In this document: in pieces, positions 1 through 13,704 of the stretch
How positions within the stretch are numbered: the stretch's first letter is position 1
Layout: every line of letters starts with the position of its first letter
Source of the DNA: a virus
Lineage: Duplodnaviria; Heunggongvirae; Uroviricota; Caudoviricetes
IMG/VR virus record: IMGVR_UViG_2740892422_000001
Coordinates: 1-13,704 of that record
DNA length: 13,704 nucleotides
Direction: 5' to 3' (one strand)
Program-made: the position numbers and the translations under genes
The notes under the pieces: model-generated
The model's database searches: none
What the model was told of the DNA's origin: nothing
Seen by the model: only the letters and a program-made list of their open reading frames with translations

Positions 1-20
1 CGAAGGTGAGTTGATGGCTC

Positions 21-332
21 ATGATGTCCCTCTGGGATGCGCTCCGGATGAATATGATGATCTCATATCAGGAACTTGTTCGCACCTTCCTTAACAAAAT
101 CGCAATGCTTGGAACTGAGAAGACAGCGGAAGCTGTGGGCGTTGATAAGTCGCAGATCAGCAGGTGGAAGAGGGACTGGATTCCAAAGTTCTCAATGCTG
201 CTTGCTGTTCTTGAATGGGGTGTCGTTGACGACGACATGGCTCGATTGGCACGACAAGTTGCTTCGATTCTCACCAATAAAAAACGCCCGGCGGCAACCG
301 AGCGTTCTGAACAAATCCAGATGGAATTCTGA
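21..332 (+). CDS. cII: cII-like transcriptional activator; C-terminal ~80 aa match lambda CII as I recall it, N-terminal ~23 aa unrelated
   Basis: ORF translation from LNKIAMLGTEKTAEAVGVDKSQISRWKRDWIPKFSMLLAVLEWGVVDDDMARLARQV...KKRPAATERSEQIQMEF matches lambda CII from memory, including the helix-turn-helix region. Upstream of ~nt 87 the DNA and the N-terminus MMSLWDALRMNMMISYQELVRTF do not match lambda. AGGTGA lies ~11 nt upstream of ATG 21. The true start is uncertain; in-frame ATGs also occur at 24, 48, 54 and 57. Confidence 0.7.
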   Translation: MMSLWDALRMNMMISYQELVRTFLNKIAMLGTEKTAEAVGVDKSQISRWKRDWIPKFSMLLAVLEWGVVDDDMARLARQVASILTNKKRPAATERSEQIQMEF

Positions 333-354
333 GGTCATTACTGGATCTATCAAC
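278..354 (-). ncRNA. oop: oop antisense RNA (lambda OOP), overlapping the 3' end of cII, with its intrinsic terminator
   Basis: Established lambda organisation: the 77-nt oop RNA is transcribed leftward from pO and overlaps the cII 3' end. On the - strand the GC-rich hairpin (RC of ~285-300, cggttgccgccgggcg) followed by a T-run (RC of 279-284) matches the known oop terminator. Coordinates are placed by offset from lambda and are approximate (+/- a few nt). Confidence 0.5.
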
Positions 355-359
355 AGGAG

Positions 360-392
360 TCATTATGACAAATACAGCAAAAATACTCAACT
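360..392 (-). promoter_or_regulatory. pO promoter for oop (-10 CATAAT, -35 TTGAGT on the - strand)
   Basis: Reverse complement of 355-395 reads ccgaagTTGAGTatttttgctgtatttgtCATAATgactcct: 17-nt spacer and -10 ending ~7 nt before the predicted oop 5' end. Consistent with the known lambda pO location at the start of O. Confidence 0.4.
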
Positions 393-1264
393 TCGGCCGA
401 GGTAACTTTGCCGGACAGGAGCGTAATGTGGCAGATCTCGATGATGGTTACGCCAGACTATCAAATATGCTGCTTGAGGCTTATTCAGGCGCAGATCTGA
501 CCAAGCGACAGTTTAAAGTGCTGCTTGCCATTCTGCGTAAAACCTATGGGTGGAATAAACCAATGGACAGAATCACCGATTCTCAACTTAGCGAGATTAC
601 AAAGTTACCTGTCAAACGGTGCAATGAAGCTAAGTTAGAACTCGTCAGAATGAATATTATCAAGCAGCAAGGCGGCATGTTTGGACCAAACAAAAACATC
701 TCAGAATGGTGCATCCCTCAAAACGAGGGAAAATCCCCTAAAACGAGGGATAAAACATCCCTCAAATTGGGGGATTGCTATCCCTCAAAACAGGGGGACA
801 CAAAAGACACTATTACAAAAGAAAAAAGAAAAGATTATTCGTCAGAGAATTCTGGCGAATCCTCTGACCAGCCAGAAAACGACCTTTCTGTGGTGAAACC
901 GGATGCTGCAATTCAGAGCGGCAGCAAGTGGGGGACAGCAGAAGACCTGACCGCCGCAGAGTGGATGTTTGACATGGTGAAGACCATCGCGCCATCAGCC
1001 AGAAAACCGAATTTTGCAGGGTGGGCTAACGATATCCGCCTGATGCGTGAACGTGACGGACGTAACCACCGCGACATGTGCGTGCTGTTCCGCTGGGCAT
1101 GCCAGGACAACTTCTGGTCCGGTAACGTGCTTAGCCCGGCCAAACTCCGCGACAAGTGGACCCAGCTCGAAATCAACCGTAACAAGCAACAGGCAGTCGT
1201 GACAGCCAGCAAACCAAAACTCGACCTGACAAACACAGACTGGATTTACGGGGTGGATCTATGA
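365..1264 (+). CDS. O: Replication initiation protein O (lambda gpO)
   Basis: 299-aa ORF matching lambda O from memory ([40 protein letters not shown]...TDWIYGVDL). RBS AGGAG upstream. Stop overlaps the next ATG (ATGA at 1261-1264) as in lambda O/P. Contains the ori iterons. Confidence 0.97.
713..840. repeat. ori-lambda: four ~19-bp iterons (each an internal inverted repeat tccctc...gaggga) followed by an AT-rich unwinding region
   Basis: Seen directly: catccctcaaaacgaggga (712-730), aatcccctaaaacgaggga (732-750), acatccctcaaattggggga (~754-773), tatccctcaaaacaggggga (~780-799), then A/T-rich caaaagacactattacaaaagaaaaaagaaaagattattc (800-840). This is the classical O-binding origin inside the O coding sequence. 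Confidence 0.9.
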
Positions 1265-2079
1265 AAAACATCGCCGCACAGATGGTTAACTTTGACCGTG
1301 AGCAGATGCGTAGGATCGCCAACAACATGCCGGAACAGTACGACGAAAAGCCGCAGGTAAGCCGTATTCTGGCGATTACGACAAGCGATGAGAAATGCCT
1401 GCAGACTGCATCCAGAGATGATTTGGCATCAAAACTGAAAACCGCCGGATATTCACGCAGTTTTATTCAGTATTCATCGGGTAATAAATACGCTGCGTTA
1501 TCTGCATTTGGCCGGGCATTCACGGTTAATTTCAATGGCAGTAATACCGCGATTACGCTCAAGTTTAAGCATGAGCCGGGGGTCGGGTATGAAACACTGA
1601 CAGTCAGCCAGGCATCGGCACTTGATGCAAAAAACTGCAATGTGTTCGTGTACTACCAGAATGATACAGCTATCCTCCAGCAGGGAGTGATGGCTAACGG
1701 CGATTTCTTTGATGAACGCCACGGCCTGGACTGGTTACAGAATTATGTGCAGACCAGCCTCTATAACCTGCTTTATACCAGCACCACGAAAGTTCCCCAG
1801 ACTGAAGCCGGTATTACCCGACTGTTATCAAATGTTGAAAAATCACTGGATCAGGCCGTTCAGAATGGACTGATTGCTCCGGGCGTATGGAACGGGGGCG
1901 ACCTTGGTCAGTTGTCATCAGGTGACACACTGCCCAAAGGTTATTACGTATACGCTCAGCCGCTGGATGAACAGGCTCAATCAGAACGTGAAGCCCGTAA
2001 GGCTCCGGTGATTCAGGCTGCAATAAAACTTGCAGGCGCGGTTCATTACGCTGACGTACAGATTAACGTTGTTCGCTAA
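1261..2079 (+). CDS. In-frame fusion ORF: lambda P N-terminal ~32 aa joined to the C-terminal ~240 aa of a tail-sheath-like protein
   Basis: First 32 aa ([33 protein letters not shown]) match lambda P; at nt ~1359 the sequence diverges and the remainder ([12 protein letters not shown]...[45 protein letters not shown]) resembles a C-terminal sheath domain by composition and by its position immediately upstream of a tube gene. Sheath proteins of this type are about twice this length, so the N-terminal half appears to be missing. The sheath assignment is from memory, not an alignment. Confidence 0.55.
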
Positions 2080-2089
2080 GGGGAAGTGA

Positions 2090-2530
2090 ATGTCTACCTA
2101 TTCTTTTATGGATGTCACTGCGACGCTGACCGGGCCGACAGGTTCGATTGACCTCGGGTACGGTTCGGCAAGTTCTGAAGAGGGGATTGTGGTTGCGATG
2201 GGCGGTCCTAAAAACACCATGACCATCGGTGCTGATGGCGAAGTGATGCACAGTCTCCATGCAGATAAAAGCGGGACGATTACCGTTAACCTTCTGAAGA
2301 CATCACCGACAAATAAAAAATTGTCGCTGGCGTATAACGCACAGAGCCAGTCTTCTGCCACATGGGGGAATAACGTTATCGTGATCCGCAACAAGATCAG
2401 CGGTGACATCATCACGGCACGCAGTGTTGCGTTCCAGAAACAACCGGATAACGCCAACGCTAAAACCGGTAATACGATGCCGTGGGTGTTTGACTGCGGC
2501 AAGATTGACCAGGTTCTCGGGGAGTTTTAA
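2090..2530 (+). CDS. Tail tube protein (Mu gpM-like)
   Basis: 146-aa ORF directly after the sheath-like ORF and before the chaperone and tape measure genes. RBS AGGGGAAG upstream of ATG 2090. Size and position are typical of a myophage tube protein. Confidence 0.6.
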   Translation: MSTYSFMDVTATLTGPTGSIDLGYGSASSEEGIVVAMGGPKNTMTIGADGEVMHSLHADKSGTITVNLLKTSPTNKKLSLAYNAQSQSSATWGNNVIVIRNKISGDIITARSVAFQKQPDNANAKTGNTMPWVFDCGKIDQVLGEF

Positions 2531-2533
2531 TGC

Positions 2534-2986
2534 ATGGAATTCGAAATTAAAGGCGTGAAATATCGCACGGCAAAACTCAGCGTTTTTGACCAGCTGAAAG
2601 TGACCCGCAAACTTCTGCCGGTGCTGGCAGGAATGATGTCAGATTTCGGGAGTATTCGCTCCCGTTTGCCTGCTGACGGCAAAATCGACACCGTGAAATT
2701 CGAACAGTTAAAACCGGTGTTTGAAACCATGCTCCCGCGTATCGCTGAGGAACTGTCTTCCCTGACCGAAGATGACACCGATGCGATTATTCATCCCTGT
2801 CTTGCGGTGGTATCGCGGCGTCATATGGACGGATGGGTGCCGGTATTTACCCAGGGTGAACTGATGTTTGATGATATTGACCTGCTGGTCATGCTGCAAC
2901 TGGTGGCGCGGGTGGTCGCCGATTCGCTGGGAAATTTTTTGCCTACACCCCTTACCAGCACGACGCAGAGCCTGCAACAGGGCTGA
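2534..2986 (+). CDS. Tail assembly chaperone (lambda G-like, upstream frame)
   Basis: 150-aa ORF between the tube and tape measure genes, RBS GGGGAG ~10 nt upstream. A slippery heptamer near its 3' end and an open -1 frame downstream (next feature) fit the conserved chaperone arrangement. Confidence 0.6.
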   Translation: MEFEIKGVKYRTAKLSVFDQLKVTRKLLPVLAGMMSDFGSIRSRLPADGKIDTVKFEQLKPVFETMLPRIAEELSSLTEDDTDAIIHPCLAVVSRRHMDGWVPVFTQGELMFDDIDLLVMLQLVARVVADSLGNFLPTPLTSTTQSLQQG

Positions 2987-3174
2987 CGTTTAACAGCCTG
3001 CCGGACGGGCTGTCCTACCTTCTCAATCCGGTTGACGCCGGGTTAATTCCTTATACAGCACTTAAAGATGGCTCTGTCGATTTGTATGACATTGCTCTCT
3101 TGAATGACCATCTGGCGGTAAAAGCGGATAACCAGCGACGCATTGAGAAATGGAGAGAGGATAATGAACGCTGA
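2534..3174 (+). CDS. Tail assembly chaperone -1 frameshift product (G-T-like): frame 0 from 2534 to the slip site 2929-2935, then the -1 frame to TGA at 3172-3174
   Basis: Seen directly: G_GGA_AAT heptamer at 2929-2935 (lambda G/GT uses G_GGA_AAG) followed by a T-run. The -1 frame is open from at least 2881 to 3174 and encodes a protein-like extension (...FNSLPDGLSYLLNPVDAGLIPYTALKDGSVDLYDIALLNDHLAVKADNQRRIEKWREDNER). The extension ends just inside the tape measure gene start, as expected. Confidence 0.5.
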
Positions 3175-5152
3175 AACTATTAAAGATTTCCTCGTCTCGC
3201 TTGGCTTCAGTGTGGATGATGCAGGAGCGAAAAAGTTCGGTTCTGTCCTCGCCGGTACAACTGCAAATGTCATCAAAATGGGGCTGGCTGTTGAAGGAGC
3301 TGCGCTGTCCGTGGTGGCCTTCACGGCTAAGATCGCCTCCGGCCTGGATAATCTTTACTGGGCGTCACAGCGCACCGGCGCGACAGTCCAGGGAATTCAG
3401 TCTATTGGCTATGCGGTTTCGCAGGTTGGCGGCAGCGTGGACGCTGCGCGATCTTCTCTGGAAAGCCTCTCCCGGTTTATTCGTAACAATCCCGGTGCAG
3501 AAGGCTTTCTGAATCGCCTGGGCGTACAGACCCGTGATGCCAGCGGTAACATGCGTGACATGGCCGCTATTTTTACGGGCGTTGGACAGAAACTCAGCAG
3601 CATGCCGTATTACCGGGCTAACCAGTATGCGCAGATGCTGGGCATTGACGAAAATACCCTTATGGCGATGCGCCGGGGTGTGGGTGGCTTCTCCGGGCAG
3701 TACAGCGCAATGGCGAAAGCTATCGGCTTCAATGCTGACGAGGCGGCCAGAAGCTCCAACAAATTTATGACCTCCCTGCGTGAGTTTGGCGCGATGGCAG
3801 GCATGGCCCGTGACAAAATCGGCTCTAATCTTGCGGGGGGGCTTGCGGGTTCGCTGGACACCCTGCGCCGCCATATCCTGGACAACTTCCCTCGTATCGA
3901 GCAGACCCTGACGAAAGCCATAAAAGGCATTCTGGCGCTCGGGGATATTATCGGGCGGCTGTTCTTCAGACTGATTGAGGGGACATCAGGCCTTATCACC
4001 TGGTGGCAATCGCTGGATAAGCAAACGCGGGAGTTGATCTCGCTGTTTGGCGCACTGACGATTGCGCTGCGCATTCTGAACAGTACGTTCTGGATGTCGC
4101 CGATTGGCCTCATTACCGCGCTGGCGGCGGGTATTGCCCTCCTGTGGGAGGACTATCAGACCTGGAAGGAAGGCGGCGACAGCCTGATTGACTGGGGCAA
4201 GTGGAAACCGGAGGTCGATGCCGCGCTGAAGATGGTTCGTGACCTTAAAACGACCGTTAACGACCTGGTGAAAGCGCTGGCGAAACTGCTCAATATTGAC
4301 CCCAAATCATGGTCCCTGAAGTGGGATTTCAGCAACTTCATCGACCAGATGGGCGAATTCAGCAAAATGCTGAACATGATCGCTGACCTGCTCAACGCTA
4401 TCAAAGATGGCCGCTGGGCTGATGCCGTCAGCATCGGCAAACAGATACTTAATCAGGGCAGCGAAAATCCGTCAGCGATGCCGATGGTTACAGACAGCGC
4501 TAACAGTACTGCCGACTGGATTAAAGAGCACTGGGGATTAGATCCCCGCAGTGTGGGCCGGACGGTACGCGGCTGGTTTGGTGATGATGAGCCGGAACAA
4601 CATGCACAGGCTACGAAACGAGGAGAACGGAATAACAATCCGGGAAACCTTAATTTTGCTGGTCAGGCAGGGGCTTCTCTTGAACGCCCGGGCGGGCGAT
4701 TTGCCAGATTTGAAACTGCCTTTGATGGATTACGGGCTCTTGCTCGTCAGTTAATGCTGTACGCCGGACGGGGAATAAACAGTGTGGAGAAAATTATCTC
4801 TACCTGGGCACCTGCGTCTGATAATAACAACACAACTGCGTATATCAGGGCTGTATCGCAACGACTGGGAGTGGATCCCCGGGCTGCCCTGAATATGAGC
4901 GATCCGCAAACCATGTCAGCATTGATGAGCAGCATTATCCAGCATGAGAATGGAAGAAATATCTATTCTCGGGAGCTGATTAATAAGGCTGCCGTGGCGG
5001 GAATTAGTGGCAAAGTGACAGAGGTTAACCAGCAGAATACCTACCACATTTACGGTGGCGGAGATCCGCACGCTGTCGGTAATGAGGTTGCACGTCGGCA
5101 ACAGTCTGCAAATGCTCAGGTCATGCGAAGTAATCAGGTGAGGGTGGGTTAG
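3164..5152 (+). CDS. Tail tape measure protein
   Basis: Long ORF (662 aa from ATG 3164; an alternative ATG at 3143 lacks an RBS) directly downstream of the chaperone pair. GGAGAGAGG RBS. Alanine/glycine-rich helical N-terminal part, a hydrophobic segment (LISLFGALTIALRILNSTFWMSPIGLITALAAGIALLW) and a distinct C-terminal globular region. Position and composition are typical of a tape measure protein. Confidence 0.85.
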   Translation: MNAETIKDFLVSLGFSVDDAGAKKFGSVLAGTTANVIKMGLAVEGAALSVVAFTAKIASGLDNLYWASQRTGATVQGIQSIGYAVSQVGGSVDAARSSLESLSRFIRNNPGAEGFLNRLGVQTRDASGNMRDMAAIFTGVGQKLSSMPYYRANQYAQMLGIDENTLMAMRRGVGGFSGQYSAMAKAIGFNADEAARSSNKFMTSLREFGAMAGMARDKIGSNLAGGLAGSLDTLRRHILDNFPRIEQTLTKAIKGILALGDIIGRLFFRLIEGTSGLITWWQSLDKQTRELISLFGALTIALRILNSTFWMSPIGLITALAAGIALLWEDYQTWKEGGDSLIDWGKWKPEVDAALKMVRDLKTTVNDLVKALAKLLNIDPKSWSLKWDFSNFIDQMGEFSKMLNMIADLLNAIKDGRWADAVSIGKQILNQGSENPSAMPMVTDSANSTADWIKEHWGLDPRSVGRTVRGWFGDDEPEQHAQATKRGERNNNPGNLNFAGQAGASLERPGGRFARFETAFDGLRALARQLMLYAGRGINSVEKIISTWAPASDNNNTTAYIRAVSQRLGVDPRAALNMSDPQTMSALMSSIIQHENGRNIYSRELINKAAVAGISGKVTEVNQQNTYHIYGGGDPHAVGNEVARRQQSANAQVMRSNQVRVG

Positions 5153-12599: not shown

Positions 12600-13192
12600 T
12601 GAAACCTGTTTTTGATGAAAATGGACTGGCTACAGTGCCGGGTGATATGCGTTGTTTTTATTATGATGCAGTAACGTATGAATATACGGGCTGGTCTGAT
12701 GAATATATTAATACTGGTGTAAGTATGCCCGCCTGTTCCACTGGTATTGACCCTGGCGAAAACATTCCGGGAAAAGTGGCTGTATTTACAGGTAAGGGAT
12801 GGAGCCATGAAGAGGACCATCGCAATGAGACTGTTTACTCAATCGAAAATGGCGCAGCTGTTACAGTGGATTATATCGGTGCCATCAAAAACGGTTATGT
12901 CACGCTTTCACCGTTAACGCCATATGATAAATGGGATGGTGAGAAATGGGTGACAGATACTGAGGCACAACACAGTGCCGCAGTAGAAGCGGCAGAAGCA
13001 CAGCGCCAGTCACTGATTGATGCAGCAATGGCTTCCATTAGTCTGATTCAGCTGAAATTACAGGCCGGGCGGAAACTGACGCAGGCAGAAACAACCCGGC
13101 TTAACGCTGTGCTGGATTACATTGACGCGGTGACGGCAACAGATACCAGCACCGCGCCGGATGTCATCTGGCCTGAACTGCCGGAGGCGTAG
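12599..13192 (+). CDS. Tail fiber assembly protein (Tfa / Mu U-like)
   Basis: 197-aa ORF. The C-terminus LNAVLDYIDAVTATDTSTAPDVIWPELPEA carries the conserved C-terminal motif of the tail-fiber-assembly family. Start coupled to the tail fiber stop. Confidence 0.8.
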   Translation: MKPVFDENGLATVPGDMRCFYYDAVTYEYTGWSDEYINTGVSMPACSTGIDPGENIPGKVAVFTGKGWSHEEDHRNETVYSIENGAAVTVDYIGAIKNGYVTLSPLTPYDKWDGEKWVTDTEAQHSAAVEAAEAQRQSLIDAAMASISLIQLKLQAGRKLTQAETTRLNAVLDYIDAVTATDTSTAPDVIWPELPEA

Positions 13193-13604
13193 GCCATTCA
13201 ATATCTGGCGCACCGGAAGTATCGACCAGCTCCAGTGCGTCCAGATAATCCAGCCACAAATTATATTGCGCCAGTTCCTCACCTTTCAGGCGACCAATCG
13301 CCGCTTTACCAGGCCATTGTTTACTGTTCATATAATCGTTGGCCTGATTAATCAGTTGCTGCTTTTCCAGTTCGGCTGCAGCAATCTGTTCCTCATGTGT
13401 TGGTGGTGGAATTTCAGACCATGCAGGAAAACCATTTTCTCCAGCGATACGGATTTTTCCTTTCGGCGGTAATCCGGAAAACTCAATATACACCTGCTCA
13501 TCAACTTCGACAGCATCATCTGGCCATGAGTCAGCTTGAATGTAATCCTCTTTCATCTCCAGCGGATAGAAAGAGTTTGTAGTCGCGGAATATATGTAAT
13601 TCAT
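13164..13604 (-). CDS. Alternative tail fiber assembly protein (Tfa', Mu U'-like) on the opposite strand
   Basis: 146-aa - strand ORF whose C-terminus (NLWLDYLDALELVDTSGAPDIEWPTPPAVQAR) carries the same family motif as the + strand Tfa. Its 3' end overlaps the + strand tfa 3' end by 29 bp (convergent). Confidence 0.8.
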   Translation of the reverse strand: MNYIYSATTNSFYPLEMKEDYIQADSWPDDAVEVDEQVYIEFSGLPPKGKIRIAGENGFPAWSEIPPPTHEEQIAAAELEKQQLINQANDYMNSKQWPGKAAIGRLKGEELAQYNLWLDYLDALELVDTSGAPDIEWPTPPAVQAR

Positions 13605-13625
13605 TTTTCAGGTGATGCTGCCAAC

Positions 13626-13704
13626 TTACTGATTTAGTGTATGATGGTGTTTTTGAGGTGCTCCAGTGGCTTCTGTTTCTATCAGCTGTCCCTCCTGTTC
13701 AGCT
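13626..13704 (-). CDS. 3' end of a - strand ORF entering from beyond the window (probable alternative tail fiber variable domain)
   Basis: The - strand frame is open from the window edge to TAA (RC of 13626-13628), encoding ...AEQEGQLIETEATGAPQKHHHTLNQ*, and ends 22 nt upstream of the Tfa' start. Only 25 codons are visible, so identity is inferred from position. Confidence 0.3.
   Translation of the reverse strand, partial: AEQEGQLIETEATGAPQKHHHTLNQ

Follow-up and report, generated by a model that had tools for sequence, protein, structure and literature searches.

The DNA analyzed here, a 13,704-bp stretch that we call the window and that constitutes the entire contig JRGC01000269.1 of draft assembly GCA_000754855.1, opens with a cII gene that carries a foreign N terminus. 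Insertion of ISKpn26 into the cII gene of a prophage, together with a contig break inside the insertion sequence (IS), almost certainly explains this N terminus. The preliminary description had read the same arrangement as a mosaic breakpoint, with phage recombination giving rise to a chimeric cII. The foreign DNA is instead the terminal 90 bp of ISKpn26, and although no natural cII allele identical over positions 21 to 90 was found, it is this identity of the foreign DNA on which the mosaic reading fails.

BLAST alignments begin at window position 87 against lambda and 334 phage records and at position 87 or 90 against Escherichia coli prophages. Comparing individual bases with those of lambda and of an intact E. 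coli prophage places the onset of homology at position 91 and the true junction between positions 90 and 91, with bases 87, 88, and 90 matching cII by chance (three scattered matches within 87 to 90 at the ISKpn26/cII joint) and bases 1 to 90 being unrelated to lambda. Past the IS terminus, the window reads TTAA-CAAAATCGC..., which is cII from nucleotide (nt) 53. These comparisons confirm the earlier proposals that lambda homology starts inside cII and that roughly the first 86 nt are foreign. They also bear out the ~1.27-kb lambda-like stretch that had been delimited together with a breakpoint in P, which measures 1,269 bp (window 91 to 1359) and aligns without gaps to lambda 38412 to 39680 with 17 mismatches (98.7% identity). 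The cII 3' fragment (91 to 332, plus strand) starts at the second base of codon 18 and extends through the stop codon; it is 100% identical to the cII of several E. coli prophages and 98% identical to that of lambda. The DNA is 98 to 100% identical to E. coli prophages. No exact match to the ISKpn26/cII junction was found in the GTDB representative genomes. One candidate carrier of the junction, H99 (strain OkiPb01696), was rejected, since its apparent coverage from base 1 consisted of separate pieces joined by BLAST; the ISKpn26 copy in H99 adjoins yfhH at the distal end of the tail module.

When bases 1 to 91 were searched alone, they matched ISKpn26 copies at 100% identity in thousands of database records, so the breakpoint is not a chance pattern. 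Matches at ≥99% identity were found in at least 2,150 E. coli records and at least 3,862 plasmid records, the latter from Klebsiella, Escherichia, Enterobacter, and others, and the feature underlying the matches is annotated as "IS5-like element ISKpn26 family transposase." A complete annotated ISKpn26 copy at locus L001 (1395 to 2590, 1,196 bp) is identical to the window through the last base of the element. Window positions 1 to 90 (minus strand) therefore represent the transposase-proximal end of ISKpn26, an element of the IS5 family and IS5 group whose complete length is 1,196 bp, and the contig begins inside it. The terminal inverted repeat of 16 bp occupies positions 75 to 90, where CTTGTTCGCACCTTCC is the reverse complement of GGAAGGTGCGAACAAG. 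The expected boundary repeat, GGAAGGTGCGAA(C/T)AAG, is thus present as an exact reverse complement at the one end of the element that the contig contains, and the two ends of the L001 copy agree at 15 of their first 16 bases. The first 22 nt of the DDE transposase gene (MSHQLTF...; 1 to 22, minus strand) are also present before the gene runs off the contig. In L001, the ISKpn26 transposase is encoded by the minus-strand coding sequence at 1542 to 2522, and L001 position 2501 corresponds to window base 1, which places the ATG at window position 22; read from 22 to 1 on the minus strand, the window is identical to the annotated start of this gene. The transposase has 326 amino acids (aa), and its gene begins 69 nt from the window-side end of the element.

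Directly beyond the inverted repeat lies the TTAA target (91 to 94), which corresponds to cII nt 53 to 56 (codons Leu18/Asn19) and to lambda 38412 to 38415. Among 114 distinct right-end ISKpn26 flanks collected from IMG/VR contigs (loci L007 to L126), YTAR was found in 100 and TTAA in 4, and a 4-bp CTAG duplication is reported for the ISKpn26 insertion in acrR (PMC8023600). Based on these flank counts and the acrR precedent, TTAA in cII is a legitimate, though minority, target. The acrR::ISKpn26 allele of sequence type 11 (ST11) Klebsiella pneumoniae involves the same element, with 100% identity over the 90 bases present in the window, and it resembles the cII insertion in that the IS terminus abuts a 4-bp YTAR inside a coding sequence and leaves two gene fragments (PMC8023600). 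It differs in that the target in the window is a prophage regulator rather than a chromosomal resistance-related gene and in that the window displays a single junction. In the mechanism that we propose, ISKpn26 would have transposed into TTAA at cII nt 53 to 56 and split cII between codons 18 and 19, with its transposase gene directed back toward cro. Provided that a simple insertion happened, the TTAA at 91 to 94 would be one copy of the 4-bp duplication.

The event most likely took the form of a simple insertion (probability of about two in three), in which case the far side of the IS would carry the 5' piece of cII and a second TTAA. Given that 25 of the 37 complete copies of ISKpn26 found on phage or prophage contigs carry a 4-bp duplication (TTAA/TTAA in 2 cases) and that matching 4-bp flanks are absent from the other 12, we weighed simple insertion against IS-mediated deletion or rearrangement in the same proportion, at two-thirds to one-third. 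The 12 copies without matching flanks suggest that IS-mediated rearrangement is frequent after insertion. The main alternative, which we regard as possible but clearly less probable than simple insertion, is thus that an IS-mediated adjacent deletion, an inversion, or recombination between two ISKpn26 copies followed the insertion and eliminated the 5' piece of cII or moved it elsewhere. Such an event would have done the same to the upstream cro, cI, N, and int genes, leaving unrelated DNA beyond the IS and an unduplicated TTAA. Besides the 12 copies, this alternative is favored by the L001 reference copy, which lies between truncated rcsA and fliR and has unequal flanks (TTAG and TTAA), and by the fact that the prophage is clearly rearranged in other respects. 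It is also consistent with our search for the reciprocal junction, i.e., cII nt 1 to 56 followed by the left end of the IS (...GAGAGTGCGTTGCTTAA/GGAAGGTGCGAATAAGCAGG). This junction was not found as DNA in the GTDB representative genomes, and no CII N terminus was present among the matches listed when it was sought as a called protein, although neither search reliably covers the other contigs of the same draft assembly. Against this alternative stand the duplications observed in 25 of the 37 complete copies, and simple insertion into TTAA remains our preferred form of the event.

Both ends of the contig lie within an IS, 90 nt inside ISKpn26 on the left and 94 nt inside IS1 on the right, which is the usual way in which short-read assemblies break at multicopy repeats. 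ISKpn26 would have defeated the short-read assembler in this manner, such that the contig starts 90 nt inside the element, and 43 of the 114 ISKpn26 right ends in IMG/VR (~38%) similarly lie less than 130 nt from the start of a contig. The left end of IS1 (13611 to 13704, plus strand) is 100% identical over its 94 nt to IS1A copies in 4,963 of 5,426 E. coli genomes, and homology with the intact prophage ends at position 13610. The IS1 insertion lies 6 bp upstream of the ATG (13604) of a minus-strand tail-fiber-assembly gene (13164 to 13604), within what appears to be an invertible tail-fiber segment.

Since the window is a draft short-read contig with the junction 90 nt from one end, we also asked whether the IS end and cII had been wrongly joined by the assembler and are not adjacent in the genome. 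This explanation is very improbable, given that no long repeat at the joint is common to the two sequences (the three scattered matches at 87 to 90 notwithstanding) and that the same contig is present in two samples. Moreover, a random mis-join would not be expected to fall exactly on the last base of the IS repeat and on a YTAR site, so the ISKpn26/cII junction is most likely genuine.

The open reading frame (ORF) annotated as CII (21 to 332, plus strand) encodes 103 aa, MMSLWDALRMNMMISYQELVRTF-LNKIAMLG...; its first 23 codons derive from the IS end and lead in frame into CII residues 18 to 97. As had been noted before, the ORF carries a non-CII N terminus and matches lambda from about codon 24, with ORF residue 24 onward corresponding to CII residue 18 onward. 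Its start codon is an ATG located 70 nt inside ISKpn26, where the sequence is antisense to the leader and start codon of the transposase, and the reading frame of cII extends no more than 76 nt into the element before it is closed. The ORF covers only positions 16 to 91 of the Pfam family Phage_CII (PF05269), whereas the intact CII of locus L005 covers 1 to 91; it therefore does not comprise a full-length CII domain, CII residues 1 to 18 having been replaced. IS DNA precedes the remnant, in contrast with the placement downstream of cro and nutR that would allow a CII to be expressed from pR, and the flank does not consist of phage DNA that recurs at this map position in other lambdoid phages, as would be expected of a natural hybrid allele. 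Among ~15 billion proteins, the 103-aa product forms a singleton cluster from one contig. The 103-aa "CII" is thus an accidental read-out ORF and an annotation artifact, which would have arisen when the gene caller took an ATG in the IS that by chance shares the frame of the cII remnant.

It is nevertheless conceivable that the 103-aa chimera is expressed, by read-through from pR across the IS or from an unrecognized outward promoter, and that it keeps some CII activity or behaves as a dominant-negative subunit. The ORF does retain the helix-turn-helix and the C-terminal part of Phage_CII (profile positions 16 to 91), and AAGGTG is located 12 nt upstream of its ATG. An expressed ISKpn26-CII fusion with a helix-turn-helix and an oligomerization helix could in principle disturb the CII of superinfecting phages or take over part of its role, and such a fusion, if real, would alter the lysis-lysogeny decision of superinfecting lambdoid phages. 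We consider both expression of an active chimera and this effect on superinfecting phages highly unlikely. No forward-strand promoter-like site was found in window positions 1 to 420, and the singleton protein gives no sign of selection. Furthermore, the 18 N-terminal residues of CII, and with them most of helix 1, have given way to antisense IS sequence that is not under selection. The lost residues belong to the crystallized core, since PDB entry 1ZS4 covers CII residues 4 to 82 (full-length CII is found in 1XWR, 1ZPQ, and 8IGR).

A second open stretch crosses the junction in a different frame. The preliminary description had reported an ORF that runs in from upstream and stops at 89 to 91. 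The open stretch does exist, as the tail of a frame 2 reading (...ELMAHDVPLGCAPDEYDDLISGTCSHLP*; 2 to 94, plus strand), but its TAA stop lies at 92 to 94 and is provided by the target site. It does not represent a separate phage ORF but is antisense to the IS transposase gene (ATG at window position 22, minus strand); in total it is 348 nt long and extends to the terminus of the element. Whichever of the four canonical YTAR sequences is the target, it places TAA or TAG directly past the ISKpn26 terminus in the frame of this 348-nt stretch, so the antisense frame is always closed by the target site.

Searching with the predicted reciprocal-junction peptide retrieved at least 1,512 public protein clusters in which the N termini of host genes are fused to the left-end peptide of ISKpn26, ...(K/R)EGANKQVISSQADSLIKISRIWADFFPANTSNQPI. 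The name "ABC transporter" has been propagated to many of these clusters, which represents a systematic annotation error. The 103-aa ORF is the mirror image of these read-through artifacts at the other end of the IS. In contrast with those clusters, this ORF takes its start codon from the IS and its C terminus from the host gene, and the product consequently still scores as a member of the CII family.

A mosaic joint inside cII between lambda and another phage, which would have produced a hybrid CII allele, has a negligible probability even though lambdoid phages have mosaic genomes and the ORF reads through the junction without a frame break, since the foreign part is IS DNA at 100% identity that ends at the IS terminus, the junction (window 1 to 400) is spanned in 0 of 50,697 phage records and 0 of 5,426 complete E. 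coli genomes, and the 103-aa protein is a singleton whose 23 foreign residues are antisense to the transposase leader.

The lambda-like stretch that follows the junction belongs to the prophage itself. An intact related prophage is found in E. coli 09A19CPO009 between torS and torT, with a left part arranged as int-xis-...exo-bet-gam-kil-cIII-...N-cI-cro-cII-O-P-ren-nin-Q, followed by tRNAs, lysis, terminase, head, and neck genes, a DUF3383 sheath, tube, baseplate, and fibers. Window positions 87 to 1362 match the cII-O-P region of this prophage at 99.7% identity, and positions 1357 to 4473 match its sheath-tube region at 97.1% identity. Prophages of this type thus naturally pair lambda-like early genes with a contractile-tail module. 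Given the 99.7% match, the stretch is the native cII-O-P replication module of the prophage, rather than imported lambda DNA as its earlier designation as a lambda-derived block had implied, and it is cut by ISKpn26 on the left and by an internal deletion of 15.9 kb on the right. The tail module is of the kind found in temperate myophages, for example vB_EcoM-689R2 and the Salmonella phage SEN34.

Within this module, the O replication initiator gene (365 to 1264, plus strand; Pfam Phage_rep_O) encodes a protein that is identical to lambda O except at one residue, and each of the four ori iterons (713 to 797) has the lambda sequence. The lambda-type module of O with four iterons, pO/oop, and P is accordingly present, with P reduced to 33 codons. 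On the minus strand, a promoter-like site (390 to 362) and a terminator-like hairpin (308 to 281) occupy the position of the lambda cII/O intergenic region. Based on this position and on the promoter and terminator predictions, the pO promoter, oop antisense RNA, and terminator (273 to 390, minus strand) appear to be of the lambda type and intact. The name oop follows that of the lambda counterpart; an Rfam scan of the whole window returned no family at gathering score, oop included.

The first 33 codons of P (1261 to 1359, plus strand) end at a deletion junction marked by a shared GTA (1357 to 1359), beyond which the 3' two-thirds of the DUF3383 tail-sheath gene (1360 to 2079, plus strand; Pfam positions 239 to 493 of 493) is fused in frame to the truncated P. 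The intact DUF3383 protein has 381 aa and is annotated as the tail sheath in Salmonella phage SEN34. Relative to the 09A19CPO009 prophage, the fusion of P codon 33 to the sheath gene at this 3-bp GTA microhomology reflects a deletion of 15,927 bp (alignment with P and DUF3383 of L005), which removed the 3' part of P, ren, nin, Q, and the lysis, terminase, head, and neck genes as well as the 5' third of the sheath gene. The resulting P-DUF3383 fusion protein (1261 to 2079) was found on JRGC01000269.1 only. A related prophage in E. coli HCM-22C-2 (L006, 5620 to 7158) carries an independent deletion that extends from just after ren to the neck genes; Q and the lysis, terminase, and head genes are gone, and the whole tail module is kept. 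The decay of such prophages may repeatedly retain tail genes.

Since CII residues 1 to 18 are lost and ~1.2 kb of IS lies between the remnant and pR, we infer that cII is inactivated. Rightward transcription into O-P is probably impeded as well. The prophage must be defective regardless of cII because of the separate 15.9-kb deletion. Lysogeny depends on CII for its establishment but not for its maintenance, and losing CII should therefore cost the host nothing.

Insertions in this region have precedents in lambda itself. The polar mutants r14 and r32, described in the early 1970s, carry IS1 and IS2 insertions in the cII-O region of laboratory lambda. The ISKpn26 insertion resembles them in that an IS lies in or beside cII, with the loss of CII and polarity on O-P as the expected consequences; it differs in that the element belongs to the IS5 family and the recipient is a natural, already defective prophage. 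The Rac prophage of E. coli K-12, which carries IS5, is an example of an IS-riddled cryptic lambdoid prophage. As in cryptic prophages such as Rac, the prophage in the window has decayed by IS insertion and deletion (ISKpn26 in cII, IS1 near the tail-fiber genes, and the 15.9-kb loss). Unlike Rac-like cryptic prophages, it combines a lambda-like early region with a DUF3383-sheath contractile tail, and its IS sites are different.

Taken together, these results identify the disruption of cII by ISKpn26 as a known, ordinary gene disruption and not as the origin of a new hybrid regulator. Near the end of a contig, insertion sequences should be checked before a homology breakpoint or a foreign protein terminus is read as mosaicism, and the 103-aa "CII family" ORF should be kept out of CII alignments and counts of cII alleles. 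The region as a whole represents routine prophage decay, in which an IS in a lysogeny-establishment gene is combined with a large internal deletion and a second IS.
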